The notes below the pieces were generated by a model. It searched no databases. It worked only from the letters and a program-made list of their open reading frames with translations, and was not told the origin of the DNA. A DNA stretch of 64,000 nt, from the IMG/VR virus record IMGVR_UViG_3300025418_000011; one strand, 5' to 3'. Positions 1,560 through 19,267 of the stretch are shown here, piece after piece. Within the stretch, counting starts at the first letter, position 1. Each line of letters starts with the position of its first letter. The position numbers and the translations under genes are program-made. This DNA is from a virus.

Positions 1560-2252
1560 ATGAATACGATGACTAAGGCCGAGAAGGCACAAAAAATAAA
1601 AGAATACTTTGGAAACATTCGACTAGACGTGGGTGTTATGGGGAAAACCCTTGGTATGTCTGTTAACCACATAAATCCCGCGGTATTACTGCAGACAACG
1701 AGTAAGCTTTTAAAGGTTTATAGCAGAGAAGTACATCCCGATGATAGAGATAACCTGGCGTATTCAAAATTTTTAGGTGCGGAGGATTATGTCAAAGAGC
1801 ACATAGAGCACGATGCGGGTAAGATACAAATGAAAGCAAAGATGAAGCTCAGACAAAAAAGAAATCTATCCTGGCTGCATAGCGGCTTTTTTACTCCTCA
1901 AATAAAGAGTGTTTTTGTGGGTAACGCCCTGAGCCAAAACATCGAGGGTGTAAATCCTATGGAGCAATATATGCTTGCCCACAAAGTCAGCAAGATGGGT
2001 GAGGGCGGCATAGGAAGCACAGAGAGCATTCCTGATAGCTCCAGAAGTGTTAATGAGAGTCAGTTTGGACTAATGGACCCTATTCAAACAGTAGAAGCCG
2101 AAACAATAGGCGTGGTAAACTTTTTTGTTAAAAACTGCAGAAAAGGAGAAGACGGTAAGCTCTATAGATTAGTAGAGGACTCTTCTGGTAAAAAAATTTG
2201 GATAGATCATCAGACTTTCTTGAACTCTGTTGTTGAGGTTCCAGAAAGCTGA
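1560..2252 (+). CDS. rpoB: RNA polymerase beta subunit, middle fragment (rifampicin-pocket/fork-loop region)
   Basis: [11 protein letters not shown] ~ [38 protein letters not shown] ~ [52 protein letters not shown] ~ [25 protein letters not shown]. Confidence 0.92.
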   Translation: [230 protein letters not shown]

Positions 2253-2256
2253 AAAT

Positions 2257-3834
2257 TTACGCAGGAGCATACCCGTTATACCAGCCACTATATATTTCGA
2301 TAGGACTACGACCGTCGTTTGGATTAGATGGCAGTAAGCAGCAAGTGGGGCCTGGGCATCGTTTATCTCCGCGGTATCCAACCACCCAAACATAAATATC
2401 CCTTGTTACTCCGAGAACGCAAACAGATATAGGTAACCAACAGCCACTAAGAACAGATGACAACTTATCTCCTAGCTTAAAGTCTGCTTTTAGTTGATAG
2501 TGAGGAGGAGTATGCGTAGCACCTGCCGCGCTTGGTACTCGCAGAACATCAACACTCCAAGGTAACCCGTGAGTCTGTACGTCGCTATCAAATAGAATTT
2601 CTGGTACCTCTATATTACCATCTAATATAAGCTGGCATTGCCCTTTATTCCCAGAGGAGGACAGTTTTACGTTTCCTTGTGCCATCCCTGATGTGGTAAC
2701 TGTTCCAAATACTTTGTAAGCTTCACAAAAGTTAGTCACAAGATCCAGTTTTAAATCCACCGAACAATTTTCTTCTTGTTGTTGAGCGTAACTAGCAGAA
2801 GATATAGAAGCTGTTGGGCCTGTGGAGCTCGTTGGACCTGTTATGGCTTTTGGTTTAACCAGGAAAGTGGATCCCGAGAAAGCCGAGGGAGGGTTGAATA
2901 TAGGATTTATTTTAATTGCTTCACAGGCATTAACATGAAGGTCTAAATCATAGCTTATTGTGCATGGAGGACCACCGCCTCCGCCTGTAGGCCCTGTTGT
3001 TGCCGTGAGTGACTGTTTGTTGTAAATATTAAACGCAGATCCCGCCATATTAGGGGGAAAATTAATATTTCCTTTTTCGACAAAAATAACCTCGCAAGCC
3101 TGAGGAACGAATATATTCCCTGTAAGCTGGGCTCCGCAGTCAGGAGCGCTAGAAACACTTCCGAATGTTAAACTTCCTTGCGCACTGCCTGTGAGCTTTA
3201 CATTAGAATCAATTTTAAAATTTTCACACGCAGTAACGTGAATATTTCCTCCCAATAAAATACCGCAATCAGGGGCGTTGCCAGAGCTAGTAACAGTTAT
3301 TTGCCCGTCTGCTGCCCCAGTCTGCACTATGTTTCCTTTTACCTGAACTGTTTGACAGGCGAGAGCAGCAATATTCGGAGCGTTATAAACAGGCGTTACA
3401 AGATTTACGTTTGGAAATGCAAAACTGCAGGCCCTATCCATAGGTGTGATAGGGCTGCCTAAGTCTAATAGAGGAGCGCTAAGTGCGGGTAATGCGCAGT
3501 TATCTGGCGGGGTTATTGTGCCCAATATAAGACTAGTGCCACTAGAAATATTATGTGTGAGATGCGCGCTAAGAGTTATGGTATTTCCATAGATCTGAGT
3601 TATTGTTGTATTGGGCTGAATGCCATAAGCCTCTACAATCTGACCAACACTTAATAAACTTGGGCTGTTTACAACTAAGTCTAATGCATTTGTTAATGCT
3701 AACTGAGTAACTACAACAGACTCATTAGAAATACTAAAATATCCTGGCTGATATTGCGCCGTGTATTGAGGAACTCCTAAAGTATCTGGTGAGCCTAGTA
3801 TTACACTAGATGTATTTATTTCTAATCCGGCCAT
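2257..3834 (-). CDS. putative virion fibre/appendage protein with Cys-paired repeats
   Basis: T/S/G/P/N-rich beta-strand composition, GPTG linkers, repeated Cys-paired units. Confidence 0.6.
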   Translation of the reverse strand: MAGLEINTSSVILGSPDTLGVPQYTAQYQPGYFSISNESVVVTQLALTNALDLVVNSPSLLSVGQIVEAYGIQPNTTITQIYGNTITLSAHLTHNISSGTSLILGTITPPDNCALPALSAPLLDLGSPITPMDRACSFAFPNVNLVTPVYNAPNIAALACQTVQVKGNIVQTGAADGQITVTSSGNAPDCGILLGGNIHVTACENFKIDSNVKLTGSAQGSLTFGSVSSAPDCGAQLTGNIFVPQACEVIFVEKGNINFPPNMAGSAFNIYNKQSLTATTGPTGGGGGPPCTISYDLDLHVNACEAIKINPIFNPPSAFSGSTFLVKPKAITGPTSSTGPTASISSASYAQQQEENCSVDLKLDLVTNFCEAYKVFGTVTTSGMAQGNVKLSSSGNKGQCQLILDGNIEVPEILFDSDVQTHGLPWSVDVLRVPSAAGATHTPPHYQLKADFKLGDKLSSVLSGCWLPISVCVLGVTRDIYVWVVGYRGDKRCPGPTCCLLPSNPNDGRSPIEIYSGWYNGYAPA

Positions 3835-3835
3835 A

Positions 3836-4189
3836 TCAAATAATTCTATTTAAACAGCCATATAAAAACAAGCCTATAGGTATAACTAAAAAGTTAATAT
3901 TAAATACCAAAGCAATATCTAAACCTAACCAAAATCCAAAACAAATAGGACATGTAACTAAACGAACCAGGAAAGAGTCGTGATAATATTCCTTTAAAAA
4001 TTGAACGTATCCATCCGGATAGCCGTTTTCTACCAATTCATAATATTTGCCTACTTTAAAATATTTAGAAAGCTTGAAAAGATTTATATACTCGGCAAAC
4101 GCATTTGTTCTAAACCAAACCAATAGAATATAAGCCAACCATGCAGAGGCTCCTAACAATATAATAAAATTATTAGGAGCCTCTGACAT
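3836..4189 (-). CDS. small membrane protein with CPIC motif (DUF1360-like pattern)
   Basis: N-terminal hydrophobic helix and LVTCPICFGFWLG followed by a second hydrophobic segment. Confidence 0.65.
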   Translation of the reverse strand: MSEAPNNFIILLGASAWLAYILLVWFRTNAFAEYINLFKLSKYFKVGKYYELVENGYPDGYVQFLKEYYHDSFLVRLVTCPICFGFWLGLDIALVFNINFLVIPIGLFLYGCLNRII

Positions 4190-4197
4190 ATAGTTAT

Positions 4198-4479
4198 TTA
4201 CTGAGCAGCCGACAACTCAGTAATCTTTTTCTGCAATTCGAATAATAGGTTTTTTTGGGCCGTAGCTGCGATCTTTCGGCTTTGTAGCATATTCATTCTT
4301 TCTGTTAGCTGCTTATTTGCTTCTGTGACTTCGGCAATTCCTGATTCTAGCCCATTGAGCTGATCTTCAACTTGAGCTAGACCGTCCTCTATCAGGAGCA
4401 TAGAGATATGCTTGTCTGTTTCTGTACTTACCACTGCGGGAAGTTCTACTGTGCCTCTTTGTTCATCTTGTGCGCTCAT
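4198..4479 (-). CDS. coiled-coil hypothetical protein
   Basis: Heptad-like L/E/Q-rich sequence. Confidence 0.75.
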   Translation of the reverse strand: MSAQDEQRGTVELPAVVSTETDKHISMLLIEDGLAQVEDQLNGLESGIAEVTEANKQLTERMNMLQSRKIAATAQKNLLFELQKKITELSAAQ

Positions 4480-4480
4480 A

Positions 4481-4627
4481 TTATTCCTTGGTTAATAATT
4501 CTTTTATCTCGGCGTTGATTCTTTTGATGTCTTCGTTATAAGCCTGCATCTCGGCTTTTTTATTTTTCCTGGTTTGTTCAAGCTCTTGAACAAGACGAAA
4601 TACTTGGGATTCTTTTGATTCTTCCAT
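4481..4627 (-). CDS. small coiled-coil protein (48 aa)
   Basis: Hand-translated MEESKESQVFRLVQELEQTRKNKKAEMQAYNEDIKRINAEIKELLTKE; 1 nt from next ATG. Confidence 0.65.
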   Translation of the reverse strand: MEESKESQVFRLVQELEQTRKNKKAEMQAYNEDIKRINAEIKELLTKE

Positions 4628-4662
4628 GTGTTTATTATTTGTTTAAGTGTTACTGACGAGAA

Positions 4663-4692
4663 TTAATATATACGATCTCTAGCTACGCGCAA
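4663..4692 (-). promoter_or_regulatory. possible sigma70-like promoter
   Basis: TTGCGC-16 nt-TATATT just downstream of the terminator. Confidence 0.3.
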
Positions 4693-4703
4693 GTGCTTTT
4701 TAT

Positions 4704-4735
4704 AAAAAAATAAGGGTGTGGATTTCTCCACACCC
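4704..4735 (-). terminator. intrinsic terminator (possibly bidirectional)
   Basis: GGGTGTGGA-GAAA-TCCACACCC hairpin followed by TTATTTTTTT on the minus strand. Confidence 0.9.
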
Positions 4736-4761
4736 CCATTCTTTTTTAACTGGTCTAAAGA

Positions 4762-5277
4762 TTAGACAGTAGGGCCTGTTTCTGTGTTAGAAACAGAATC
4801 CTTGGTAACAATTGCACTAGCGGACACGGTGACCTGAAGGAGATCACCAGCAGAACCACCAACGTTAGGATTCGTGGATCCGGCTGAACCTTGGGTGCCG
4901 TTACCGCGGATGTAATAAATTACATAGCTGAGCAAAGGACCAGGGTTGTTGTTGGAATAAGTTCCCGTTCCGCCTGTACCAGCGCCCGTGGCTCCTGTAC
5001 CAATGTTGAGCGCGAGAGGACCTGCGGTGAGATCCGTTCCAGGAACAACATCAAGAGCGATCACACCGCCACCGAGGTGGGCCGTGACGTGAGCCTCAAC
5101 GATATAACGGCTGTCAACATCATCAAAGCTGATGGTGTCGCCGCAATTGTAGCTTCCGGCAGGAATAGTGCCGAAGGCCATGCTAGCCTTCTCGTAGCGA
5201 GAAGTGATGAGTCCACCGATCTGATTGTCGGCTGTAACGCCAGAAGCGTTTTTACGAACTGAATATGTGGTAGCCAT
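4762..5277 (-). CDS. highly expressed probable virion protein (decoration/minor capsid-like)
   Basis: G/T/S-rich, C-ending codon bias like the major capsid gene, own promoter, structured leader and strong terminator. Confidence 0.6.
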   Translation of the reverse strand: MATTYSVRKNASGVTADNQIGGLITSRYEKASMAFGTIPAGSYNCGDTISFDDVDSRYIVEAHVTAHLGGGVIALDVVPGTDLTAGPLALNIGTGATGAGTGGTGTYSNNNPGPLLSYVIYYIRGNGTQGSAGSTNPNVGGSAGDLLQVTVSASAIVTKDSVSNTETGPTV

Positions 5278-5306
5278 AATTTTTAATTGTTGTTTGTTTT
5301 TGGTTG

Positions 5307-5390
5307 AACTATCAACAATGGATTATGCCCTTGCAACAGACTAGGATTACTAATCCAGAGAAACATAAGGTTTCTCCATTGCTGATAGTT
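5307..5390 (-). ncRNA. candidate structured RNA (four-way junction) in the leader of 4762..5277
   Basis: 16-bp closing stem AACTATCAGCAATGGA/TCCATTGTTGATAGTT (one G-U, which pairs only on the minus strand) enclosing GAAAC/GTTTC, GGATT/AATCC and a weak GCAA-loop hairpin. Confidence 0.55.
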
Positions 5391-5419
5391 ATTATTACTT
5401 ATTGTTTGTTAGTATGCAA
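5391..5419 (-). promoter_or_regulatory. putative promoter
   Basis: TTGCAT-17 nt-AATAAT within GTAATAAT; the same -10 octamer precedes the capsid operon. Confidence 0.45.
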
Positions 5420-5423
5420 TATT

Positions 5424-5657
5424 TTATTTGTGGCTGCCTCCCACAAACTCATAAAACATTTCTGCAGTGCTGATGATTTCCTTTTTTGATGGATATAGCT
5501 TTTCAATTGCTTCTGGTGAAACAACCTTATTGTCTTTCTCAGCTGCCGCCATAAACGCAGAGGCTTTGTGCTGAAATAATTCAGTACAATACCTGTGAGC
5601 GTCCATAAGAATGTCTAATCTGATTTCGTATGCGTTTTTATTCATGTGTGTGTTCAC
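5424..5657 (-). CDS. small conserved phage protein
   Basis: NAYEIRLDIL...YPSKKEIISTAEMFYEFV pattern recalled from myoviruses; strong SD (GAGGAGGTG). Confidence 0.8.
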   Translation of the reverse strand: MNTHMNKNAYEIRLDILMDAHRYCTELFQHKASAFMAAAEKDNKVVSPEAIEKLYPSKKEIISTAEMFYEFVGGSHK

Positions 5658-5667
5658 CTCCTCTTAA

Positions 5668-5696
5668 TATATACCTCTGACACGGTAGGGTTGCAA
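5668..5696 (-). promoter_or_regulatory. sigma70-like promoter
   Basis: TTGCAA-17 nt-TATATA. Confidence 0.5.
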
Positions 5697-5699
5697 ATT

Positions 5700-6353
5700 T
5701 TAACTTAAAAATATTTTATTGTACAACTTGTCTATTTCGTCGCCTGTGTACATTTTCTTATTGGCTAAATAAATCTCATTTCCCCAGGCGGCTTGCATTT
5801 GGCTATCAGACACGCCGAGATCTCTCATCACACCATAAAGCTTTATTTGCGTGTTCTGAAGCATCAAAACAAAAAGTTGTTTGTCTGGATAAAATAATAT
5901 TCTTCCGCCCATTCCTGTTCTAGGGGCCGGATTGATGTGAGCTTCTGCTTCTCCGCTTTGGCGAATCCTGGAGTAAACCCCAGGAAGCAATCTCTGCTGA
6001 TGAATAGGCTCATACTCACTGCCGTTATACACAACCGTATTCCTGTCTGTGACAAAAGGAATATTCGCAATGGTAATATGTTTGGATTCTACCCGCTGAC
6101 CTGTGCGTTTATCCACCAAGTGCACATCTCCCTTTATTGGGTAAGTAAGATCACGCTTTTCTAAGATAGCCTTTTTCTGGTCCTCTATAGAGAATGGCTT
6201 TGGGTGTATCTCTATGTTCTCTACCTCTAACTTGTGGTCGTTTGTTTCTATCTGCCCTAACTTAGACTTAAAACCTTCTAGCACATGTTTCTGAATAAGC
6301 TTATTCAGTGCATGCGGATCAAAAAAATCTCTGGTATTTTTAGGAAACTCCAT
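5700..6353 (-). CDS. rpoB: RNA polymerase beta subunit, N-terminal fragment
   Basis: [11 protein letters not shown] ~ [43 protein letters not shown] ~ [44 protein letters not shown] ~ LPATIILRALN. Confidence 0.9.
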   Translation of the reverse strand: [217 protein letters not shown]

Positions 6354-6552
6354 TTGAAAGCTTTTTTTGCACTGCTCTTGTTATTATTATCCAGGCACTG
6401 TGATAATCTTCTTCTGATAAGAAATCTTCTGCTGTTAACTCTACCTCTATAGGCTTACCAGGGTAGGTCACTTTTTCTTTTTCTCCGCCGATTTCTTCTA
6501 GGTATGTTCCTTTTATTTTTAAAGACGGAATATAGATTTGTTTAGCTTGCAT
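6340..6552 (-). CDS. hypothetical protein (70 aa)
   Basis: Coupled ORF in minus-strand operon. Confidence 0.7.
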   Translation of the reverse strand: MQAKQIYIPSLKIKGTYLEEIGGEKEKVTYPGKPIEVELTAEDFLSEEDYHSAWIIITRAVQKKLSNGVS

Positions 6553-7030
6553 TGTTCAAATCCTCTGTGAGTAAGGATTCAAGATATGCTTTAGTCTTCT
6601 CATCTTCAAGAAGTTTTTTCATTTCAGGATATTTAGTTTCTAAAATAACCTTTTTTTCAGGTACCTCAGAAGTTTCTGGTGCGTCTGGACCCGCAATGGT
6701 ATTTACCGCACCTTTAACGGCTTTTGCTGTTAATACACTTCTAAGCACATGAGGATCTATGAGTCCTGCTAACTTTTCTTGCCCTTTAACAGGAGAGCCT
6801 ATGCTGTGCACTTCGTTAGCTGGAGTATTAAAAATGGTTTTTTCAGGGCCTAAGTTTAAATTCAACTTTCCCTGCATTTGTGGAAGCAGTGGAGCTATTC
6901 CTGGATTAGGTCTGGGTGCAATATTATCTAATATTTTACTCACACGGGAGGTTAAGAGGTTGGTTAAAAAACCTCCCTCTTTTTCCATATCGGAAAATCC
7001 TCTTTCAAATTCGCTCCAGTCTATTTTCAT
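6542..7030 (-). CDS. putative internal head protein with KxA-type motif
   Basis: FERGFSDMEKEG-GF and EKLAG motifs. Confidence 0.6.
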   Translation of the reverse strand: MKIDWSEFERGFSDMEKEGGFLTNLLTSRVSKILDNIAPRPNPGIAPLLPQMQGKLNLNLGPEKTIFNTPANEVHSIGSPVKGQEKLAGLIDPHVLRSVLTAKAVKGAVNTIAGPDAPETSEVPEKKVILETKYPEMKKLLEDEKTKAYLESLLTEDLNNAS

Positions 7031-7761
7031 CCTATGTTGTAAGGTTCTAATTCTACTCTGGTAGGAATGTTAGAGATATAATCCTCAGCGTGATTTTTCT
7101 CTCTAAGCTTCTTCTTAATAACATAAGTAAGATAAGCACTACCTGCGCCTGTACCTATTAATCCTGTGGCACCTAAATCAATAACAGGGTCAACAGGCTT
7201 TTTCAAGATACCTAGGCCTTTACCAAGAAGTCTCTTTAGGCTGTGATCGCTTATTTCTACATCTTCTGCAGTATTACCTGCAGTTTTAGGAAGAATTTCA
7301 CTGATGGTCGCTTCTGCAGCCAATCCATTGCAGAATGCATCCACGTTAGGGGTTTCTAATTCACCCTGCTTAATCTTTTGAAGTGTTTGGAGATATTCTT
7401 TTTGCGCATCCTGAAGTTCACGCTGTATCTGCATCTTCTGTTGCTGAAAGTATTCTCTCCTGGCTTCGTGAAAGCCTGCCTCACCACCAAACACAGAGCG
7501 AATTGGGTTTCTGTTGAATCTGATTGCTCTTCCTATCAACCCAGGAGAAGCCTCGCCCTCTTCACTGGTTTTGTGCAAAGTATTTACAGGAATAGGAATT
7601 CTCAAGGTGTCTCCTCCACCAAGACCTTCCATTCTGCGGGTGGCCTCTTCCTGTTCTTTTGCAAGTTGTATAGCACTGAACAAGCTTCTGCCAAAAAGCT
7701 TAGAAGCAAGATAAGCCTCTTCTGGAGATAGAGGTATTTTTGTTTGGTTGTTATTATTCAT
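7027..7761 (-). CDS. putative internal head protein
   Basis: HKTSE and PKTAG motifs, coiled coil, C-terminal Gly-rich hydrophobic segment. Confidence 0.6.
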   Translation of the reverse strand: MNNNNQTKIPLSPEEAYLASKLFGRSLFSAIQLAKEQEEATRRMEGLGGGDTLRIPIPVNTLHKTSEEGEASPGLIGRAIRFNRNPIRSVFGGEAGFHEARREYFQQQKMQIQRELQDAQKEYLQTLQKIKQGELETPNVDAFCNGLAAEATISEILPKTAGNTAEDVEISDHSLKRLLGKGLGILKKPVDPVIDLGATGLIGTGAGSAYLTYVIKKKLREKNHAEDYISNIPTRVELEPYNIG

Positions 7762-8122
7762 TAGAGGTTTCCTTCTTTTTTCCGTAAATCACAAAGACTC
7801 TATAACTTCCTTGAGGAGTCCAATTATCCTTGTAGTAGCTGATCACATATTTCTCGTCGTTCAAGAGCCTGGACAGCATTTCACCATCATGCTGCTTTTC
7901 TGGGTCTAATACGATGTTGTGAAACTCATATATAGAGAGATCCATCTTTGGCTTTTTAGCCCAGCCCTTGGCCTGCTCAAAGGCATCTACTGTTTTTTGC
8001 TGATCTAGGATCTCTCCTTTTAATTCTCTCTGGATGCTGCGCTTGGGCTGAGGCCTGAAGTCAGGACTAGCTGTTCCAAAGTCAAAATGTTCTGTTGCTT
8101 TTTCTGTGTTAGTGTAGGCCAT
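7754..8122 (-). CDS. hypothetical protein (122 aa)
   Basis: Coupled ORF. Confidence 0.75.
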   Translation of the reverse strand: MAYTNTEKATEHFDFGTASPDFRPQPKRSIQRELKGEILDQQKTVDAFEQAKGWAKKPKMDLSIYEFHNIVLDPEKQHDGEMLSRLLNDEKYVISYYKDNWTPQGSYRVFVIYGKKKETSNE

Positions 8123-8480
8123 GTTCTTGTTTTAGTTTGTGGGTTAAATTTCTAATCATATGTACCTTCTGCCTCTCTCTGGCTAGGGCTTGATTTAATT
8201 CTGAAACATTATTTTCCATCTCGTCAAAAGCCATGCCGCCAGCAGCTCCTGCTGCGGCGCTTGTGTTCATGGCCCAATGAGGAAGACCTCCTGCAATACC
8301 TGCAGCAGGACGAATGAGAAAGTCATTCATTACATTAAGATCAGACGCAACCTTCATGGCTCCTTCTGCCGTATTGATATTAGCCAGGGCATGCTCGAAT
8401 TCCTCCAACGAGCTTCCGATCTTCTGAAGATCATCGGCTAATACTTCTTTTATTGTTTTTGCGTAAGATGTTAAGTTCAT
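8109..8480 (-). CDS. putative internal head protein, Gly/Ala-rich
   Basis: MKVAS motif followed by AAGIAGG...AAAGAAGG. Confidence 0.6.
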   Translation of the reverse strand: MNLTSYAKTIKEVLADDLQKIGSSLEEFEHALANINTAEGAMKVASDLNVMNDFLIRPAAGIAGGLPHWAMNTSAAAGAAGGMAFDEMENNVSELNQALARERQKVHMIRNLTHKLKQEHGLH

Positions 8481-9657: not shown

Positions 9658-9659
9658 AT

Positions 9660-10760
9660 TTATCTGATAGAGGAAGGCATCGCGTCTCTGCTCCAACCAT
9701 AACCATAGCTAGCTAACGGGTTGCCCCCTCCCATAGCAGAGTTCATCATGCCTGGTAAGAACTTATGGCCTAGAAACCCGCCTAAAAGTAAAGGAGTCAC
9801 TGTGCCTAGAGGAAGCCCCAATTCTTTGCTGAGCATCAATGCACCTAATGCGCCTCCTGCCGTACCAGCCAGCTCGTTAGAAATTCCTGGAATCATTTGG
9901 TGTTGGTTCCAGGGCGGCTGACCATATTTGAAGTCTCCCCCATCTCCTGAGATAGACCTACCCAGTAAAGCTCCTCCTCCTAATGCACCGGCACCAACGC
10001 CAGCAACTCCTGCTCTACCTAATAGTCCGGCAGCCCCTCCTAGCGCGGCTCCTCCTAAAGCTCCTGGTAAACCTCCCAGTGCACCTATTCCACCGCCGTA
10101 GAGGGCCCCCTTGCCTGCTTTGTTCCATCTACGTGCCCAGAATCCTGGACCCATGAATCCAGGGTCTCCTGACTGTGGAGTTGCTTGAGGGGTGGAAGTT
10201 GTGGGTTCTGCTGCAGGTGTAATAGGCTCCGCAGCTGGATGCGCTGCTTCTGATGCAGGAACTCCTCCAGCCCCTTCTGAAGCACTGAAGCCAGGACGAA
10301 TCTTATTTGCCTCTTCTCCGACACCCATAAATGTATTTTTCAATCCTTGCAGCATACCCTCACCCTTTCCTGCTTCTCTCCAGGTGTCTCCTACTCCCTT
10401 GAAAACTCTACCCAAGCCCTCACCTATACCACCTAGTCCCCTGAGGAGTGAAGCTTCTCCTCCTGCGGTCTTCTCGTTGAACTCTCCTGCAATCTTCTCT
10501 AGTTCAACCTCGCTCTCTTTGAAGAATCCCTCTATGAATGCTTCGTCCTTTCCTTCTTCTAGCAAAGCCTCTTTCACGCCCTTTCTGAACTCTAGACTCT
10601 CTTCTCTCACTTGATTCAACAGAGCTGAAGTCTTCTCCAGGAACTCCATAGTCTCTTTGTTCGAGAGTATTGTATCCACTATTCCCAGCGAGGCTTCTTT
10701 GGATATTCCCTCCTGAGATAATACTTCTAACATTCCTGACTTCAGTGCTTCTGGATTCAT
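9660..10760 (-). CDS. putative internal head/ejection protein with long glycine zipper
   Basis: Acidic N-terminus with KEAS, KTSA, KESE, KIAG, KTAG, then GGGIGALGGLPGALGGAALGGAAG... Confidence 0.65.
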   Translation of the reverse strand: MNPEALKSGMLEVLSQEGISKEASLGIVDTILSNKETMEFLEKTSALLNQVREESLEFRKGVKEALLEEGKDEAFIEGFFKESEVELEKIAGEFNEKTAGGEASLLRGLGGIGEGLGRVFKGVGDTWREAGKGEGMLQGLKNTFMGVGEEANKIRPGFSASEGAGGVPASEAAHPAAEPITPAAEPTTSTPQATPQSGDPGFMGPGFWARRWNKAGKGALYGGGIGALGGLPGALGGAALGGAAGLLGRAGVAGVGAGALGGGALLGRSISGDGGDFKYGQPPWNQHQMIPGISNELAGTAGGALGALMLSKELGLPLGTVTPLLLGGFLGHKFLPGMMNSAMGGGNPLASYGYGWSRDAMPSSIR

Positions 10761-11871
10761 ATTCTGGGTTTGCGCAAGATTTAGTTCTATCGATTTTATC
10801 TTTAGAATGCTTTTTTTGCAAGTCAGGATTCTTCTCTAATCCTCCGCACCCTGTTTTGTGTGTATGTAGGAAGAAATAAGCCACAGAGTATGCCATCTCA
10901 CGAGCATTTCTAACCAGCTCGGCACCATCATCAGGATTCCACTCAGTGGACAGTCTATCACTCCAATCATACACACCAGTTATGTATCCTAGATAGTTCT
11001 CAAACTCAGAGGTTCTGCTCTTCCAGGTTATATATTTGTTATCTCCAGCCATTCCCATAGAAATAGCTTTGTCTAACTTAAGTTTAGATCTCATATCCTC
11101 TTCTGACCAACCTTTATCCGCCCAGAACACCACATGAGTATGAGGATGAATCACACGGCTAGAGATAGAAGTAGCACTGCACTCATGACTGTAGAAGTAG
11201 TCAGAGATAACGCCAGAGCGCTTCAATGCCATCAACCTACCTCTGGTTTTCTTGAAGTCACCGTCCAAACTAGATATCCATTCTTCACCGTGATCTGGAA
11301 TGTGAACATCATCTTCATGAATAACAAAGGTCATAGCACGTTTACCAGACCTGAAGAGATCAGAGATAGAGAGCGAACGCTGATTCAACCACTTTGTACT
11401 ATCATTCCTAGTAGTATATGGGTTGAGAGTCTTGCTTTTGAGATTCTTACCACAAACTCCTTTCTTATATGAGAGCATACTGTTTAAGAGAGAACCAGAG
11501 CTCAACAGGCTATCACCAGTAAGAGCAACAAATGAGCACCAACGAGTAAATTGGTTCTTACGCTTCATACCCCATGCAGGATAGTAAATGATTCCATGAT
11601 TACCAGATCTACCTTCACCCTGAACTTCTTTCTCTAGTATTCTAAGTATGTTCCAACTTTCACCAGGAGTGAGATAATCCCAACCAGCAATTATAGAGCG
11701 CATATTTGTAGGGTCTACTTCAGCTCTAGAGGTGGGAGAATAGTCTAGGGGTTTGTTCATACACCTGTTCGCCCCTAAAGCCAACCATTCGTTAATTACC
11801 CTATCCCTTGGGCGGTTAGGTTTCATGTCCACCCCACACAATTGTCCGGCTAACTCTTCTTCTGAAAGCAT
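10504..11871 (-). CDS. diverged HUH endonuclease, Rep_1/pC194-like rolling-circle initiator fold
   Basis: MTFVI (motif 1-like), YFYSHEC...HPHTHVVFW (motif 2), ENYLGY (motif 3-like), KTGCGGL ~ RLISYGGL. Confidence 0.65.
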   Translation of the reverse strand: MLSEEELAGQLCGVDMKPNRPRDRVINEWLALGANRCMNKPLDYSPTSRAEVDPTNMRSIIAGWDYLTPGESWNILRILEKEVQGEGRSGNHGIIYYPAWGMKRKNQFTRWCSFVALTGDSLLSSGSLLNSMLSYKKGVCGKNLKSKTLNPYTTRNDSTKWLNQRSLSISDLFRSGKRAMTFVIHEDDVHIPDHGEEWISSLDGDFKKTRGRLMALKRSGVISDYFYSHECSATSISSRVIHPHTHVVFWADKGWSEEDMRSKLKLDKAISMGMAGDNKYITWKSRTSEFENYLGYITGVYDWSDRLSTEWNPDDGAELVRNAREMAYSVAYFFLHTHKTGCGGLEKNPDLQKKHSKDKIDRTKSCANPEYESRSTEVRNVRSIISGGNIQRSLAGNSGYNTLEQRDYGVPGEDFSSVESSERRESRVQKGRERGFARRRKGRSIHRGILQRERG

Positions 11872-12051
11872 GGGCTCAAATTATCCACAGAAAGCACGGT
11901 TGTCAAATTCTCTGTACTGGAATCTTTTGGATGATGGAATGTGTAGGAGAGAGATGTTAAAAAGAGGGATCTATCTAATAGACTAGGTGGCCCTTGAAAT
12001 CCTCGCTTCCAATATAGGGGTTTATAGAGTATCCTAGTCTGCAAATACATT

Positions 12052-12363
12052 ATGAAACAGCTAGAGAATATTCATTCTATCACAGTAAGAGGCAGAAGGT
12101 ATAAATTCCTATTGCTACCTAATCTGATTAATGAAACCAAGAACAGAGGGCGCACGGATAACCCAGAAGCCAAAGGTAAAACTGTGGTTGTAGATCCAGA
12201 TCAATCACCTAAGGAGATGCTGGCTACTCTTTTGGATGAGTTGATACATTGTGCTGTTTGGGAATTAGACAATGACATCGTGGATGAAATCAGTGATGAC
12301 ATAGCGCATGTACTCTGGAGATGCGGATTAAGATTTGTGGATAACCCAGAAGAGGTGGACTAA
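12052..12363 (+). CDS. small zincin-like protein with degenerate HExxH
   Basis: TLLDELIHC where TLLHELIHA would be canonical. Confidence 0.5.
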   Translation: MKQLENIHSITVRGRRYKFLLLPNLINETKNRGRTDNPEAKGKTVVVDPDQSPKEMLATLLDELIHCAVWELDNDIVDEISDDIAHVLWRCGLRFVDNPEEVD

Positions 12364-12413
12364 CTTCTTTAAAAAGGTTAAAATATTCTAGTATAACCAA
12401 CATATCTAATATT

Positions 12414-13205
12414 ATGAGCATAACCGGAAAAACATTTCAGGGAGGAAGGCAGCCAAGAAGTCATAATCCCAAGATTCCCTTCATGCGCACACTGCTGGCG
12501 GGCAAACCAATTCCCGCTTTTCCGGAAGAAGTTGATTATACCGTAGGAATGCCCAGCAATCTGGGAGTGATGATGAATGACCAACTGGGCGACTGTACCT
12601 GCGCGGCGTTCTATCACGCACTACAGGTTTGGAGTTATAATACAACAGGGCAGTTATTAACAGAAGACGACGCTGAAGTTGAAATCCTGTATGAGCGCGC
12701 TTGCGGATATATACCAGGTAATCCTGCCACAGATAACGGTGGTAATGAGCAGCAAGTTCTCACCTATCTTCTCAATGAGGGGGCACCTGTAGGGTCGGGA
12801 GACGCAGAGAGACATAAGTTGACTGCTTTTTATGAAATTCATGTTAATCACATTGACGCCATAAAATCTGCTATCAATGCATGTGGTGTGTTGTATATGG
12901 GTATAGACGTTCCTCAATATATTACTCCTCCAGAAGGCAACCCTCCCGCTGTTTGGACACTCGAACCTTCAGCAGACAATACTATAGTAGGAGGGCATGC
13001 CATTATTGCTGCCGGATATAATAATGTTGGATTAAAAGTTATTTCATGGGGGCAATATTACACAATGACTTGGGATTTCTTTAGTAAGTTTACAGATGAG
13101 GCATATGCTCTTGTGGACGTTGAATGGGTTAAATCTAACAATTCTACTCCTGCGGGTTTAACCCTAGACCAGTTAGAGCAGGCAATGGCAGAGCTCAGGA
13201 ATTAA
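12414..13205 (+). CDS. papain-like (C1 family) cysteine peptidase
   Basis: NDQLGDCTCAA (catalytic Cys), GGHAIIAAGY (His), VISWG; no signal peptide. Confidence 0.88.
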   Translation: MSITGKTFQGGRQPRSHNPKIPFMRTLLAGKPIPAFPEEVDYTVGMPSNLGVMMNDQLGDCTCAAFYHALQVWSYNTTGQLLTEDDAEVEILYERACGYIPGNPATDNGGNEQQVLTYLLNEGAPVGSGDAERHKLTAFYEIHVNHIDAIKSAINACGVLYMGIDVPQYITPPEGNPPAVWTLEPSADNTIVGGHAIIAAGYNNVGLKVISWGQYYTMTWDFFSKFTDEAYALVDVEWVKSNNSTPAGLTLDQLEQAMAELRN

Positions 13206-13268
13206 CTACATAACGCGGCTATTAACAAATCAGTAGCCTTTTAAACAGGCTGTTGATAGAATGTTTGG

Positions 13269-16256
13269 ATGAAAGAGTACAAATTCGTGTTGGACCACGG
13301 AAAACTCAAAAAAGTCCCAAGATCAACTAAAGTAGATTATAAGATTCCGAGCACCACGGATTTCTTCTCTCCTGTTACAAATCTCATACCTAGCCTGAGC
13401 AGCGTTTCCGGTGCTCGTGTGCTTATCGGAGACAAGAGTTCGCTGCAGGCCATGACTCTGGTTAACAGAGAAGCCCCGTTGGTTCAATCTAGCGAAAGTC
13501 AGGAACACAAGAGCTTTGTTGAACAGTTTGGACACAAGCTTGTTAGTATACGCAGCAATATTTCAGGAAAAGTCACTTCAGTAGACAACGACAAGATTGT
13601 TATAAAAGACAACTCTGGTAAAGAGCACGAACATCCGCTTTATCAAAATTATTTAGTAGGTAGAGAAAGTTATATGCACCATACACCTACTGTTAAAGTA
13701 GGTGATTCTGTTAAACCTGAAAGTTTATTAGCTACCTCTAACTACTCAGACAGTCATGGCAATATGGCCTTGGGTATGAATCTCAAAACGGCCGTGATGC
13801 CGTATAGATCGTATAACTTTGAGGACGCACTTGTTATTAGCGAAGATGCTGCAAAAAAATTAGAAGCAGAGCAACTTGTTCCAGTTAGATTGGAGATAGC
13901 TAGAGGTATAGAAACAGAAAAAGATAAATATGTTTCTCTGTTTCCTAATAAATACTTTAATGACCAGTTAGGTAAATTAGATAGCTCTGGTGTTGTGAAA
14001 AGGGGAAGTGTAGTAAAGCACGGAGATCCATTGATTCTTGCCTATCAGCCTAAAACATTAAAGTCATTAGAGATTCAATTAGGTAAACTTTCCAGAGCAT
14101 TAAAAAACGCGTATTCAGATATCACAGAGACCTGGACTTACGAGCACGATGGTGAAGTTGTGGATGTTAGCAACACAGGTAAATTAATCACAGTAACTAT
14201 AAAGACTCGTAGGCCTATGGCCACAGCTGACAAACTATCTAATCCTTTCGGAGCAAAGGGGGTGGTTAGAATTGTTAGCAATAGTGAAATGCCTCAAGGA
14301 GAAGACGGTAAACCTATAGATGTATTGCTCAATTCGATGAGTGTTACTAGCCGTGTTGCTCCGGGGCTCATCACGACCATGGCAATGGGCAAGGTTGCTC
14401 AAAAATTAGGACATAGTCTAAAAATCACACCATTCTCTGATGGTAGCGTTGTTGAAAAAACAATAAAAGAATTAGAGAAACACGGCATAAAAGACACAGA
14501 GAAATTATACGATCCTGTTTCTGGTAAACACATAGAAGTATTCACCGGACCATCTTACTACACTCGACTCCATCATATAGCTGAAGATAAAATTTCGTCC
14601 AGATCGTCAGGAACTACCTACGATATCAATATGCAACCCTCTAAGGCGGGCACAGAAGAAAAGAGTAAGCGTTTGGGAAATCTTGCAACCACGGTGGCAC
14701 TTTCTAACGACGCTAAAGAAGTTTTAAAAGATGTTGCCGTTGTTAGAGGAACAAAAAACGACGAGTTCTGGAATGCAATAAAATTAGGTTATGCTCCACC
14801 TCCACCAAAAGTTCCATTTATATTTAACAAGTTTATCTCTCACCTAGAAGGTTCTGGTGTGCACGTTAATCAAGAGGGAACTAAGTTTAATATTCTTCCC
14901 CAAACAGATAAGGATATAGAAAAAATTAGTCACGGTGAAATTCATGAACCTCTAACCTACAAATTAAAAAATGGTGAATTAGTCGCTGAGAATAACGGAC
15001 TTTTTGACCCTGTAAATGTAGGTATTTATGGAGATAACTATAATCATATCAATCTTTCATTTAAAGTCCCCAATCCTGTTAGTGAAGAACCACTTCGTAA
15101 ACTTTTAGGAGTTACTAAAAATAAGTTTGAAGAGATGCTTGCTGATGGATCGTTAGAGAAAGCTTTAAATGGTATAAAGCTAGACGATAAAATAAACGAG
15201 CTGAAGGGTTACATTAAGTCTAACAGAAAAACAGAGAGAGACTCAGCTGTTAAAGTTTTGTCTTTCTTAACCATGTTGAAGAGGCAGGATTTACATCCTA
15301 AAGATTTATTAATTTCTAAAATTCCGGTTATCCCTGCCCAATATAGACCTATTACTGCTCAAGGTAATCAAATCATGAGCGCTGATGTTAACGAGCTATA
15401 TAAAGATTTGATGCTGGTTAATAAATCTTTTAATGGTATAGACGAGCATACTCCAGTGGAATTAAAAGGAGAGGCTCGCAAAAAATTATACGAGGGCGTT
15501 AGAGCTGTGTATGGTTTAGGCGAACCAATCAGCACCAGGAGCAAAGAAAAAAACTTTAAAGGTTTGTTAGCCACAACACTGGGCACACAAGGAGGTAGTG
15601 CAAAAAGCTCAATGTTCCAGGCAAAGGTTGTGAATAAACCAATAGACCTCGTGGGTAGAGGGGTACTTGTGCCGGATGGAAATCTTCAATTGAACGAAGC
15701 GGCAATTCCTCAGGCTATTTTGTGGAATATATACACTCCTTTTGTTATTCGGAGATTAGTAAGGCAGGGAGTACCAGCCACAAAGGCAAGAGACTATGTT
15801 AAGTCTAAACACCCTTTAGCCTCCTTGGCTTTACAAGAAGAACTCAAGGATCGCCCAGGAATTGTTACCAGAGACCCGCAGTTATCCAAATATAACTTTC
15901 AAGGATTCTACCTTAGGCCTAACCCGGATCCTAAAGACTTCTCTATAAAGCTCAACCCCTTGGTGTTTAAAGGTTATGGTGCTGATTCTGACGGAGACCA
16001 ATTGAATGTGCAAGTTCCGGCAGGAGACGCAGCTAAAGAAGAAGTTAAAGAAAAGTTATTCCCTGAGAAAAACTTAATTTATCATAGAACTTTTAGCCCT
16101 ATATATACCCCATCAAATGAGGCGGCTGTGGGATTATTTGCGGCTAGCTACGAGAATAAACATAATAAACCTATGCACTACTCTAGCGAAGCCCAGGTAG
16201 TTGCCGATTTTATGGCCGGAAAGCTAGACATAGGAGATAATATTGACTTATCTTAA
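13269..16256 (+). CDS. rpoBC: RNA polymerase beta C-terminal / beta' N-terminal fusion with the catalytic DxDGD motif
   Basis: beta: YNFEDALVISE, ADKLSNPFGAKGVV, PIDVLLNSMSVTSR, RLHHIAEDKISSR; beta': IPVIPAQYRP, KPIDLVGRGVL, TRDPQL, LNPLVFKGYGADSDGDQLNVQVP. Confidence 0.95.
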   Translation: MKEYKFVLDHGKLKKVPRSTKVDYKIPSTTDFFSPVTNLIPSLSSVSGARVLIGDKSSLQAMTLVNREAPLVQSSESQEHKSFVEQFGHKLVSIRSNISGKVTSVDNDKIVIKDNSGKEHEHPLYQNYLVGRESYMHHTPTVKVGDSVKPESLLATSNYSDSHGNMALGMNLKTAVMPYRSYNFEDALVISEDAAKKLEAEQLVPVRLEIARGIETEKDKYVSLFPNKYFNDQLGKLDSSGVVKRGSVVKHGDPLILAYQPKTLKSLEIQLGKLSRALKNAYSDITETWTYEHDGEVVDVSNTGKLITVTIKTRRPMATADKLSNPFGAKGVVRIVSNSEMPQGEDGKPIDVLLNSMSVTSRVAPGLITTMAMGKVAQKLGHSLKITPFSDGSVVEKTIKELEKHGIKDTEKLYDPVSGKHIEVFTGPSYYTRLHHIAEDKISSRSSGTTYDINMQPSKAGTEEKSKRLGNLATTVALSNDAKEVLKDVAVVRGTKNDEFWNAIKLGYAPPPPKVPFIFNKFISHLEGSGVHVNQEGTKFNILPQTDKDIEKISHGEIHEPLTYKLKNGELVAENNGLFDPVNVGIYGDNYNHINLSFKVPNPVSEEPLRKLLGVTKNKFEEMLADGSLEKALNGIKLDDKINELKGYIKSNRKTERDSAVKVLSFLTMLKRQDLHPKDLLISKIPVIPAQYRPITAQGNQIMSADVNELYKDLMLVNKSFNGIDEHTPVELKGEARKKLYEGVRAVYGLGEPISTRSKEKNFKGLLATTLGTQGGSAKSSMFQAKVVNKPIDLVGRGVLVPDGNLQLNEAAIPQAILWNIYTPFVIRRLVRQGVPATKARDYVKSKHPLASLALQEELKDRPGIVTRDPQLSKYNFQGFYLRPNPDPKDFSIKLNPLVFKGYGADSDGDQLNVQVPAGDAAKEEVKEKLFPEKNLIYHRTFSPIYTPSNEAAVGLFAASYENKHNKPMHYSSEAQVVADFMAGKLDIGDNIDLS

Positions 16257-16286
16257 AGCTTTATTAAACTTTAAGTATCACATACA

Positions 16287-16487
16287 ATGATAGATGAAGA
16301 AATTTGGTTTAAGCTAACTGATGAAGAAAAGTTGGCGGAGCTAGAACACTATCTAGATGAACTCCGCAGGCTTGATTCCGGAGAGCATGAACTAAGGGGT
16401 ACCCATCAACAGGGTAAAATTAAGACTTTAAAAAAAGAAATAAAGAAGAAAATAAATAAAATAATAGACCTGGAGTATATCAAATGA
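16287..16487 (+). CDS. small charged helical protein
   Basis: ORF between RNAP genes; acidic N-half, basic C-half. Confidence 0.7.
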   Translation: MIDEEIWFKLTDEEKLAELEHYLDELRRLDSGEHELRGTHQQGKIKTLKKEIKKKINKIIDLEYIK

Positions 16488-17080
16488 ATATTCAATCCCT
16501 TATAGAATCTTATGATGGCCTAGTTAAAGAGGCGTTCATCCCAAATCCCCAGGCGCAACAAGATCAGGGACAGTTGCAACAAGCTCAGCAACAGCTTATG
16601 GGTATGATCTCTCAACTCCCTCCCGAACTTCAGCAGCAGATTTCCCCGGCGTTGCAGCAACTTCAACAGCTTCCGCCCGACCAGCAGCTCCAGGCCATGC
16701 AACAGCTTGCCCAGCAGATCCAGCAGGTAGGTCAACAACAAGCGCAGCCTCAGCAACCACAGGAAGGCCAACCGGCAGAACAAGCCGAGCAGGAACCTCA
16801 GCAAGCCGCAGGAAATGTTAATGCGGAGAACAGCCTCGATAACACAAAGGTAACACTTTCTGTCAGAGAACTCTTAGATCTTTCGAGTGGCGGCAAGGCT
16901 ACCCATAGCTTGCTTAAGGTTAAACAACTTGCGGACACCCATAATAAAAAAATGGAAGCTATGCAGAAGCAGCAGCAGCAAGCAGAAGATCAGGCTCAGC
17001 AAGAGCAAGCCCAGCAATCCGCTATGGGGCAAGGTGGTATTTATACAGCTCCCATGGGATCAGGAAAACCACAACAATGA
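16484..17080 (+). CDS. glutamine-rich low-complexity protein with N-terminal KEAF motif
   Basis: LPPELQQQ/LPPDQQLQ repeats and poly-Q runs. Confidence 0.8.
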   Translation: MNIQSLIESYDGLVKEAFIPNPQAQQDQGQLQQAQQQLMGMISQLPPELQQQISPALQQLQQLPPDQQLQAMQQLAQQIQQVGQQQAQPQQPQEGQPAEQAEQEPQQAAGNVNAENSLDNTKVTLSVRELLDLSSGGKATHSLLKVKQLADTHNKKMEAMQKQQQQAEDQAQQEQAQQSAMGQGGIYTAPMGSGKPQQ

Positions 17081-17403
17081 GCTCCTTAGAAAAAGTTAGC
17101 AATTATTTGGACAGCTTCACTCCAGAAGATGCAAATTTTGACTATGCTTGTTATATTCGAGAAAAACTTGCGGATATGCAGGCAGTGCAATCAGCAGGAG
17201 TCATTAACTCAGAAGAAAGTACGGACGAGCATACTGGAGATTTAGATACATCAGAACAAGATAAGGCCCATGATAATTTAGAGGGAAAATTAATGCATGG
17301 AGCTTTTCAGGACTTAGAGGCATTAAATCAAATAGATAAGGATAAATTAAAAGTAGCCTCTCCTGTAAAAGATTTGTTAGATAAAATAACCAGCAAAAAA
17401 TAA
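17077..17403 (+). CDS. acidic protein with KxA motifs
   Basis: EKVSN, EKLAD, LKVAS. Confidence 0.75.
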   Translation: MSSLEKVSNYLDSFTPEDANFDYACYIREKLADMQAVQSAGVINSEESTDEHTGDLDTSEQDKAHDNLEGKLMHGAFQDLEALNQIDKDKLKVASPVKDLLDKITSKK

Positions 17404-17404
17404 T

Positions 17405-19267
17405 ATGCCTGTTACCACGGTAGGGAGAATACTTTTAAAGGAGTATACTCCTAGACACTTACACCACATGATAGATGGGCAGATTCTCGATAAAAAGGGA
17501 ATCTCTAACCTTTTTAGTGAGCTGGTAAAGCAGGAGCCGGAGAATTATAGTAAAATTGCTTCAGATCTTACTAGGCTTGGATTTGAAGTAGCCACTAGGC
17601 AAGGAACATCCATCACTCTTAAAGATCTTGTTTCTCCTGTTAATACTAAAGAAATTTATGATAAGTTCGATGAGTTCCAGGAAAAGGTAAAAAGCTCTAA
17701 AGACCCAGAGCACATCAAGAATCAAAGAATTTTTGATAAATATAATTCTTTGATGGAAGAAACCAACAAAACTATTCTTGATGAGGGACTTAAGAATAAT
17801 AAGTCTTTGGCTAAGATTATTTTAGCAGGGTCTAGAGGATCTCCTGCACAATATAGATCAACTATCGCAACTCAGGGAATTGTAGTGGATGCGGAAGGTA
17901 ACCCTAAGATGGATATCCCCGTTAAGAGCTCTTTTGCCGAAGGATTATCTCTTCCAGAATATTTAGTCACATCTTTTGGTACTCGTTCTGGTGAGGTTGT
18001 TAAAAAGATTGGTGTGGCTCAGGGTGGATACAGCTCTAAGCAGTTCTCCAGAGCCCTGATGAATCTACAAGTTACAGAACATGATTGCGGAACCACAAGC
18101 GGAATAAGTGTACCTACCTCAGATAAAGATTCTGTTGGTGCTTATCTTGCACAACCCGCAGGAGAGTATAAGCGTAATAATGAAGTTACTGCTAAGATGT
18201 TAAATGACTTGAAAAGTCATGGAATTGATAAAATTTTGATACGCTCGCCCATGACTTGCAAGGCAAGTAACAACAGTCACTTTGGAGCCGTTTGCCAATT
18301 ATGTGTAGGCAGAAGAGAAAAGGGGCTGGCGGCCCCTGATAGTTATATTGGTTTAGTGGCGGGTACCGCAGTCAGCGAACCCTTGACCGAGTACGCGATG
18401 AAACTGAGACACGGAGGAGGAGCCGCCACATCTTTAGGTGGGGTCACAGGGTTCAAGATGATTAATCAGCTAGCCAATATTCCAAAGACATTTTTAAACA
18501 AGGCTCCACTCGCTCAAGAAGATGGAATTGTTACAAATGTTCAACATGCTGCCGCCGGTGGATATTTTATAAAAATAAATGATACAGAGTATTATATAGG
18601 TGTAGGGCAAGAGCCTTATGTTAAGGTTGGAGATAAAGTTGAACAAGGGGATGTGCTAAGTTCGGGACTAGTTGATCCTAGCGAGGTTGTAAGATACAAA
18701 GGTATAGGTGAGGGAAGAAGCTATTATGCTCAAGCAATGAAAAAGGCTTTTGATGAGGGTAACCTGGGAGTAAATAGAAGAAACTTTGAATTGATCGCCA
18801 GGTCCGCCATAGATCACGTAAAAATAAATGATAATGACGGGCTTGGTGACTTTCTACCCGATCAAATTGTTTCATACGCCGCACTTGAGAAGAATTATGT
18901 ACCTAGACCTAACAGTAAAATTTTAAGATCAGACTTAGCCTACGGTAAATATTTGGAAAAGCCTGCTTTACATTATACAATAGGTACAAGAATATCTTCG
19001 TCGGTTATTAAAAATTTAACAGAGCATGGAATAGAATCTGTTGAGGTTAATGACGATCCCCCCAATTTTGAACCTCACATGGTTAGACTATTAGACGTAC
19101 CTGAGCACGTAGATGACTTTATGCATGTGCTCTATAGTACAAATCTAGCAAAGCGTTTTAGTAATGCCGTGAACGAAGGAGCTTCTTCTGACATTAGAGG
19201 ACCTAGCCCTATTCCTGGCATTGCTCATGGTGTAGGATTTGGCGAACACACAAATTTCAAAGAGTAG
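17405..19267 (+). CDS. rpoC: RNA polymerase beta' subunit, C-terminal fragment (bridge helix, trigger loop, jaw)
   Basis: TTVGRILL, GSRGSPAQ, SSFAEGLSLPEY, VTEHDCGT, IRSPMTC...VCQLC zinc site, VSEPLTEYAMKLRHGG ~ IGEPGTQLTMRTFHIGG. Confidence 0.95.
   Translation: MPVTTVGRILLKEYTPRHLHHMIDGQILDKKGISNLFSELVKQEPENYSKIASDLTRLGFEVATRQGTSITLKDLVSPVNTKEIYDKFDEFQEKVKSSKDPEHIKNQRIFDKYNSLMEETNKTILDEGLKNNKSLAKIILAGSRGSPAQYRSTIATQGIVVDAEGNPKMDIPVKSSFAEGLSLPEYLVTSFGTRSGEVVKKIGVAQGGYSSKQFSRALMNLQVTEHDCGTTSGISVPTSDKDSVGAYLAQPAGEYKRNNEVTAKMLNDLKSHGIDKILIRSPMTCKASNNSHFGAVCQLCVGRREKGLAAPDSYIGLVAGTAVSEPLTEYAMKLRHGGGAATSLGGVTGFKMINQLANIPKTFLNKAPLAQEDGIVTNVQHAAAGGYFIKINDTEYYIGVGQEPYVKVGDKVEQGDVLSSGLVDPSEVVRYKGIGEGRSYYAQAMKKAFDEGNLGVNRRNFELIARSAIDHVKINDNDGLGDFLPDQIVSYAALEKNYVPRPNSKILRSDLAYGKYLEKPALHYTIGTRISSSVIKNLTEHGIESVEVNDDPPNFEPHMVRLLDVPEHVDDFMHVLYSTNLAKRFSNAVNEGASSDIRGPSPIPGIAHGVGFGEHTNFKE

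Follow-up and report, generated by a model that had tools for sequence, protein, structure and literature searches.

The analysed window is a stretch of 64,000 nucleotides of the IMG/VR virus record IMGVR_UViG_3300025418_000011, taken as the minus strand of positions 55497–119496 of the 131,625-bp record, which is rated ~67% complete. In this stretch, an uncultured freshwater phage with a genome of ~200 kb encodes the catalytic subunits beta and beta' of a bacterial-type RNA polymerase (RNAP) in four genes scattered over both strands; in one of these genes, the end of beta is continuous with the start of beta'. The set is complete, its catalytic residues are retained, its layout is conserved among related phages, and all four pieces are under purifying selection; neither an alpha gene nor a second RNAP set was found in the genomes searched. 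These genes probably encode one working minimal RNAP core, derived from a two-gene enzyme of the type carried by Salmonella phage Arash. What sets this phage apart is that beta is cut at two further positions and its pieces are dispersed, a layout conserved in a clade of a large, almost unstudied phage polymerase family.

Four genes covering beta and beta'

The beta-N piece (217 aa, 5700..6353, minus strand) lies within a conserved minus-strand operon and corresponds approximately to residues 1–250 of E. coli beta, i.e., to the N part of the protrusion and the first part of the lobe. The beta-mid piece (230 aa, 1560..2252, plus strand) corresponds to beta ~383–616 and includes the remaining lobe, the fork, and the rifampicin-pocket region. 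The fusion protein (995 aa, 13269..16256, plus strand) consists of the C-terminal part of beta, up to approximately residue 550, and the N-terminal part of beta' directly after it. The beta'-C piece (620 aa, 17405..19267, plus strand) extends from ~568 of E. coli beta' to the end, without SI3, and contains the bridge helix, the trigger loop, and the second Zn site. The beta-N and beta-mid pieces are encoded by separate genes located 7 and 11 kb from the fusion gene. A sequence-only reading of this DNA had reported four open reading frames (ORFs) covering beta and beta'; they are present and map in order onto the two subunits. Their total length is 2062 aa, and the length of E. coli beta and beta' is 2749 aa.

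The Pfam search revealed Rpb2 domain 3 (Rpb2_3, 3e-6) in 1560–2252, Rpb2 domain 6 (Rpb2_6, 3e-54) followed by Rpb1 domains 1 and 2 (Rpb1_2, 7e-12) in 13269–16256, and Rpb1 domains 3 and 5 (Rpb1_3, Rpb1_5) in 17405–19267. No Pfam or PHROG matches were found for beta-N (5700–6353, minus strand). Its residues ~70–220 match solved RNAP beta chains from PDB (best E 2.9e-7), and the piece covers positions 6–217 (E 2.7e-69) of a profile made from the N-terminal halves of unsplit relatives (the N-half profile). The beta-mid piece covers positions 224–450 of the same profile; thus, the two pieces abut at 217/224. The fusion itself begins at profile position 1–3.

The fusion protein can be aligned as one piece, over 98% of its length, to the 1525-aa gp206 of Arash (OQ632216) and likewise to the 1527-aa genes of Vibrio phages D69, D148, and D181. 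The order along gp206 is beta-N at residues 12–210 (E 5e-24), beta-mid at 240–469, and the fusion at 483–1517, while beta'-C aligns to residues 5–603 of the 606-aa Arash gp216. Compared with Arash gp206/gp216 and with D69, the window pieces are colinear and gapless and cover beta and beta' without overlap; piece by piece, no essential gap was found against Arash or the N-half profile. The Pfam, PDB, and profile alignments agree that the four pieces make a complete beta and beta', with both barrels on one chain. A tblastn alignment with Arash extended beta-N past its stop codon to 5613; the extension was absent with D69 and in an ORF-based comparison and was rejected as spurious.

Alignments with PDB chains placed beta-N residues 85–184 on E. 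coli beta 114–218, beta-mid residues 110–201 on beta 497–587, and fusion residues 20–278 on beta 648–905, the latter running on to the end of beta near residue 550. Fusion residues 603–961 align to B. subtilis beta' 149–504, and the beta' portion of the fusion corresponds overall to beta' ~150–627. In beta'-C, residues 4–354 align to E. coli beta' 572–954 and residues 26–342 to cyanobacterial RpoC2 13–349. The breaks can be located accordingly. The beta-N piece ends at ~250 of E. coli beta and beta-mid starts at ~383, which is the place of the beta-i4 insertion; beta-mid ends at ~616 and the fusion starts at ~628. The break in beta', at ~568 of the E. coli subunit, resembles the rpoC1/rpoC2 split of cyanobacteria and plastids and lies ~13 residues upstream of it. 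Two of these positions, the beta-i4 site and ~560 of beta', had been predicted from the sequence, and they hold.

The catalytic motifs of the fusion protein are YNFED at residue 182, Lys322 and Lys330 in ADK...GAKG, RLHH at residue 433, and the Asp triad D906/D908/D910 in GADSDGD (residues 904–910, nt 15978–15998). The beta'-C piece contains the trigger loop AMKLRHGGG with M332 and H336 and the second Zn site C228/C285/C297/C300. All catalytic residues named by the sequence-only reading, including the trigger-loop Met and His, were thereby located. The family census comprised the best 150 hits from 1.8 billion representative proteins, every one with E < 1e-171; representatives are clusters at 50% identity, so that the family exceeds 150 such clusters among the best hits alone. 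Both catalytic Lys are invariant in the 150 members, and the first Asp of the triad is present in 150/150, the other two in 145 and 133. The fusion protein contains no cysteine, which indicates that the N-terminal zinc ribbon of beta' has been deleted; the corresponding region is Cys-free in 146 of the 150 relatives, and, judged by this pattern, the ribbon is missing family-wide. Of the features of the two-barrel multisubunit RNAP core, both barrels, the bridge helix, the trigger loop, and the second Zn site are present; the beta' zinc ribbon and a co-encoded alpha dimer or omega are not.

Conserved layout and the Arash-type family

The 995-aa form was found at 14 IMG/VR loci from about a dozen contigs with 67–92% identity. 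A four-piece layout identical to that of the window, down to the protein ends, was found in at least 11 contigs of different metagenomes (55–92% identity), four of them 94–100% complete. In each contig reaching far enough, the opposite strand carries beta-N 7–9 kb upstream of the fusion gene, and beta'-C follows 1.2–3 kb downstream of that gene. In 10 relatives, beta-N has 54–88% identity and unchanged ends. The beta-mid piece is a separate open frame of 232–270 aa located ~14–17 kb upstream of the fusion gene in five relatives, which are 86–100% complete, one with terminal repeats; its identity among relatives is 71–93%. The surrounding gene order is likewise kept. In comparison with the closest relative, pN is 0.054–0.095 and pS 0.72–0.82 per site for all four pieces, with saturated synonymous sites, which indicates strong purifying selection on all four. 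Contigs from other freshwater samples have 100% identity to the window and contain no rearrangement or joints.

The fragmentation itself, together with the lack of a Pfam or PHROG match for beta-N, might be taken as a sign that an RNAP gene is decaying and has left these scattered remnants, or that the pieces arose by faulty assembly. We find this extremely improbable: the open frames have identical ends in at least 11 independent contigs, and the conserved layout, the strong purifying selection, and the colinearity of independent contigs together exclude decay and misassembly.

The cultured relatives have a two-gene enzyme, in which one gene encodes all of beta and beta'-N and the other encodes beta'-C. 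Arash, D69, D148, and D181 resemble the window phage in that beta-C is joined to beta'-N, the cut in beta' is at the same place, the proteins are colinear at 26–32% identity, a sigma-70-like gene is located among the virion genes, and the RNAP genes are upstream of the head module. They also share with it the capsid gene, the structural protein gene beside beta'-C, the head protease region, and the sigma gene, and can therefore be regarded as its distant kin. They differ in having two genes only, with all of beta on the fusion chain (1525–1527 aa), whereas the window has two additional cuts in beta and its pieces are distributed over both strands. Thus, of the Arash-type features, beta-C and beta'-N on one chain and a separate beta'-C of ~600 aa are found here; the whole of beta on the fusion chain is not. 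Sequences of the fusion already exist for cultured phages, under the bare annotations "beta" and "beta-prime"; in the Arash paper, the two proteins appear simply as beta and beta-prime subunits detected in the virion, and the architecture is not discussed (PMC10585845).

In the census, both barrels are on one chain in 150/150 of the best representatives and beta'-C is on none. Sorting by N-terminal offset gave ~125 representatives in which a single chain contains beta-N, beta-mid, and the fusion region, 22 that begin where the fusion of the window begins, and 4 that begin inside the N half; singleton architectures in this count may be gene-calling artefacts. Indeed, P0117, an apparent representative of the window type, proved to be cut off by the contig end, which makes the singleton "split" cases uncertain. 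A quick, unrooted FastTree phylogeny based on the fusion region gives 100% support to the window clade; each of its ten clusters is split, and the clade is nested among unsplit clusters. To account for the window-type start, at least six changes on well-supported branches are required. At least two other groups are real split lineages. In the P0096 group, an 806-aa gene with the whole N half abuts the fusion gene; in the P0108 group, the N half is absent within 16 kb. Since these lineages also split there, the break at beta ~616–628 is recurrent. At the site of the beta-N/beta-mid break (profile 217/224), insertions of 183–483 aa were found in three unsplit relatives, and the N-half gene of the P0096 group contains an insertion of ~270 aa. 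On the evidence of these insertions, this break is at a permissive surface site, occupied by beta-i4 in E. coli. As a side observation in a distant lineage, the 806-aa N-half gene (L029:5450–7870) abuts the fusion gene (L029:7870–11007), and the open frame of the fusion extends a further 294 nt upstream, where it overlaps the end of the N-half gene in a different frame; the arrangement is either an adjacent split or possibly a frameshift site. The partition as a whole had been called unusual from the sequence. This is justified for the two extra beta cuts and the dispersal of the genes, which are clade-specific, whereas the fusion and the break in beta' are the default of a large family.

Many relatives reach 1800–2900 aa because of large insertions, which recur at particular positions next to the catalytic motifs. 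Among the 150 representatives, ~43 insertions follow the Asp triad, ~20 are at the first catalytic Lys, 8 are at YNFED, and ~16 are near RLHH. The insertions examined (relatives P0002, residues ~910–1347, P0007, and P0013) contain LAGLIDADG domains and can therefore be identified as inteins. Judged by these insertions, this is an unusually intein-rich polymerase family, and inteins beside the catalytic motifs of relatives may explain how such genes get cut. One could suppose from the LAGLIDADG insertions at recurring sites that the beta pieces of the window are re-joined post-translationally by split inteins, so that mature beta is continuous. However, the pieces have no spare sequence and thus no room for intein halves: beta-N (217 aa) covers profile positions 6–217, beta-mid (230 aa) covers 224–450, and the fusion begins at position 1–3. 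No intein was found in the RNAP genes of the window either, and we give this possibility almost no credence.

The sequence-only reading had named the split RNAPs of phiKZ/AR9-type jumbo phages as the known background. The likeness is that of a phage enzyme of the beta/beta' type in several polypeptides, without alpha or omega. The beta' subunit of phiKZ/AR9 is cut after the catalytic barrel, at a site equated in a review with the cyanobacterial split (PMC7598289). Enzymes of this type (Chimalliviridae and a Bacillus jumbo phage) are never fused, occur as two paralogous sets, virion and non-virion, and use no sigma (PMC7824862). The window enzyme is not of this type, given that it has a single gene set, the fusion, and a sigma-70-like factor and that bacterial-like profiles match it far better: PHROG families of phiKZ/AR9 matched at 1e-6 to 1e-20 versus 1e-33 to 1e-45 for the bacterial-like full-length profiles.

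The mReC group (Weinheimer and Aylward 2020) is similar in that it comprises uncultured tailed phages from aquatic metagenomes with an RNAP readily alignable to the bacterial one (PMC7481178). It has separate beta (920–1563 aa) and beta' (902–1303 aa), and the screen that defined it required at least 800 aa for each and NADxDGD (PMC7481178). The window clade is set apart by motif and gene lengths, having GADSDGD, the fusion, a 620-aa beta'-C, and a three-piece beta, and would fail this screen on the first three of these. Membership of the window clade in the mReC set found no support, the two sample numbers that matched having done so only in unrelated capsid reference rows.

In the natural RpoBC fusions of Helicobacter and Wolbachia, beta' likewise follows immediately on the C-terminus of beta, and cellular RNAPs retain alpha2, omega, the zinc ribbon, and a continuous beta. 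We know of no cellular enzyme with both the fusion and a beta' split. Reviews of jumbo phages cover only the phiKZ/AR9 type (PMC7598289, PMC7824862). No description of a phage beta/beta'-N fusion with a separate beta'-C was found in full-text literature searches, most subscription journals being outside their coverage.

Accessory subunits, initiation, and packaging

No match to alpha (PF01000) was found in the 131-kb record of the window or in five relatives, four of them 94–100% complete, and none to omega (PF01192) in the record of the window, the sole one searched for omega. The controls of these searches were positive in 14/14 genomes; very divergent forms could escape. The earlier statement that neither subunit is visible is therefore borne out for the window phage and, for alpha alone, in the relatives. 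A single Rpb2_6 domain per genome was found in the record of the window and in near-complete relatives, with no second RNAP set. No T7-like RNAP was found, but the control of this search gave no match anywhere. Since the four genes are the only polymerase gene set in complete relatives, the RNAP may transcribe the whole genome.

A sigma-70-like factor (212 aa, 49976..50614, plus strand; phrog_351, 1e-15; Pfam Sigma70_r3, 7.7e-11) is encoded among the virion-module genes. It is found once per genome in five genomes, is homologous to Arash gp10, and is the presumed initiation factor of the phage RNAP.

We infer from homology that the four pieces assemble into an active enzyme that uses the sigma-70-like factor, is independent of host alpha, and is packaged; the steps proposed below rest on this homology and on the knowledge of split and fused RNAPs. 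The ancestor would be a two-gene enzyme with beta and beta'-N on a chain of ~1450–1525 aa and a beta'-C of ~600 aa. In the ancestor of the freshwater clade, beta would have been cut twice more, at the lobe surface (beta-i4) site and at ~beta 616–628, and the N and middle pieces would then have been relocated to different transcription units. Reassembly is expected to be non-covalent, as for the split beta/beta' of cyanobacteria, archaea, and phiKZ/AR9 phages. The fusion chain would combine the beta/beta' interface and the two barrels in a single polypeptide, the covalent link keeping the catalytic barrels together, and beta'-C would contribute the bridge helix, the trigger loop, and the jaw. 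Because the cut falls inside the lobe, beta-N and beta-mid would have to interleave to rebuild the protrusion and the lobe. As the phage has no alpha, the beta-C/beta'-N tether probably replaces the alpha dimer as an assembly aid. The sigma-70-like factor probably directs initiation and gives promoter specificity, and, by analogy with Arash, the core and sigma are probably packed in the virion and start early transcription.

The genomic setting was also described in advance, as RNAP genes among head genes. This fits the two large genes, which, here as in Arash, are upstream of the head protease (27772–29202) and major capsid protein (32447–33403, ~30% identity to the Arash counterpart) module; it does not fit beta-N, whose minus-strand neighbours have no assigned function. 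In the virion mass spectrometry of Arash, the one family member whose RNAP is known to be present in virions, gp206 had the highest spectral count of all (3516), gp216 had 1210, and the sigma factor gp10 was detected with 100% coverage (PMC10585845). By analogy, packaging of the RNAP in the virion of the window phage is a reasonable inference.

Alternatively, the RNAP may be functional and unpackaged: the host RNAP, perhaps with the phage sigma, would transcribe the early genes, including those of the RNAP pieces, and the phage enzyme would take over middle or late transcription. The location of the pieces in three differently oriented transcription units beside typically late morphogenesis genes is consistent with this, as is the carry-over of enzymes that the Arash authors allow for in their virion list. 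We nevertheless consider it rather unlikely, since the spectra of gp206 exceed those of the major capsid protein in Arash virions and gp10 is fully covered (PMC10585845), and since there is a single RNAP set, unlike the virion/non-virion pairs of phiKZ.

Several points weigh against a self-sufficient packaged core. The motif GADSDGD stands in place of the canonical NADFDGD, and NPFGAKG in place of the GRHGNKG of E. coli. Three conserved small ORFs (12052–12363, 16484–17080, and 17077–17403) always accompany the large RNAP genes and could be unrecognised subunits. Among public sequencing runs, the phage was found only in freshwater DNA metagenomes and in no RNA run. The Arash authors state that abundant enzymes may be carry-over in virion preparations, and their virion list also includes ribonucleotide reductases and helicases (PMC10585845). 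With only 26–32% identity, packaging may not carry over from Arash to the window phage.

Finally, the enzyme may use host alpha, or perhaps omega, and still need it to assemble. The evidence for independence is the absence of a phage-encoded alpha alone, omega having been searched for only in the record of the window, and natural RpoBC fusions of Helicobacter coexist with alpha. A virion-delivered enzyme, however, would have to bring host alpha along, and the phiKZ/AR9 type, which includes a virion-packaged form, has non-virion RNAPs that are active without alpha (PMC7598289). We consider a need for host alpha improbable.

As regards the minimal core derived from the Arash-type enzyme, its assembly, if it works as proposed, could be timed by when each separately encoded piece is made. 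The split RNAPs of phiKZ/AR9 are the models for a two-barrel polymerase working without alpha and sigma. The Arash-type family would be a contrasting solution, in which the catalytic subunits are tethered, a sigma-like factor is kept, the zinc ribbon is lost, and there is a single gene set. Tentatively, the Arash type may be a third major class of phage multisubunit RNAPs, a virion-delivered holoenzyme with its own sigma, in which alpha, omega, and the zinc ribbon are dispensable through the covalent tether; the window clade would then show that the core works with beta cut at two further sites and the genes in separate operons. The split sites that the four-gene clade adds in beta are natural and selected; they show dispensable connections and could guide the engineering of split polymerases. 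The family is widespread, and as it has cultured members (Arash on Salmonella, D69 on Vibrio), experiments are possible.

Small ORFs and neighbouring genes

A conserved ORF of 103 aa (12052..12363, plus strand) is located 5' of the fusion gene in all relatives and may encode an accessory factor. Its mean column identity is 64%, with invariant D62, E63, H66, C67, and W70 (DE..HC..W) and the C-terminal LWRCGLRF. A low-confidence model (pLDDT 59) predicts three strands followed by two helices. No family match and no meaningful PDB structural match were found for it, and BLASTP revealed no similarity to the small ORFs upstream of the Arash and D69 RNAP genes. Between the fusion and beta'-C genes there are a conserved low-complexity Q/P-rich ORF (198 aa, 16484..17080, plus strand; ~290–310 aa in more distant relatives), whose product is probably disordered, and a conserved acidic ORF (108 aa, 17077..17403, plus strand), which ends one base before the beta'-C start codon. 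For the latter, the model was of low confidence (pLDDT 65), with no meaningful PDB match and no omega-like match. The three ORFs were considered as hidden alpha or omega and rejected, the 198-aa one as low complexity and the 103-aa and 108-aa ones for want of a meaningful PDB match.

An ORF of 263 aa (12414–13205, plus strand; phrog_19005) is located between the 103-aa ORF and the fusion gene and has no tblastn match in any related locus; in the L008 and L012 loci, the 103-aa ORF almost directly adjoins the fusion gene. The 263-aa ORF looks like a recent insertion, possibly a mobile gene.

The candidate shared promoter word TATATATTAA was rejected, not being enriched (18 matches versus 14 expected), and a crude k-mer pass for a shared promoter motif found nothing. 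A dCMP deaminase gene (808–1251, minus strand; phrog_174, 1.4e-38) is located ~300 nt upstream of the beta-mid gene; being on opposite strands, the two are divergently transcribed. Two long minus-strand ORFs, 9660–10760 and 10504–11871, overlap by 257 nt, as they also do in L006, the closest relative; possibly, a wrong start was called for the downstream ORF, or the two ORFs are read as one by frameshifting.

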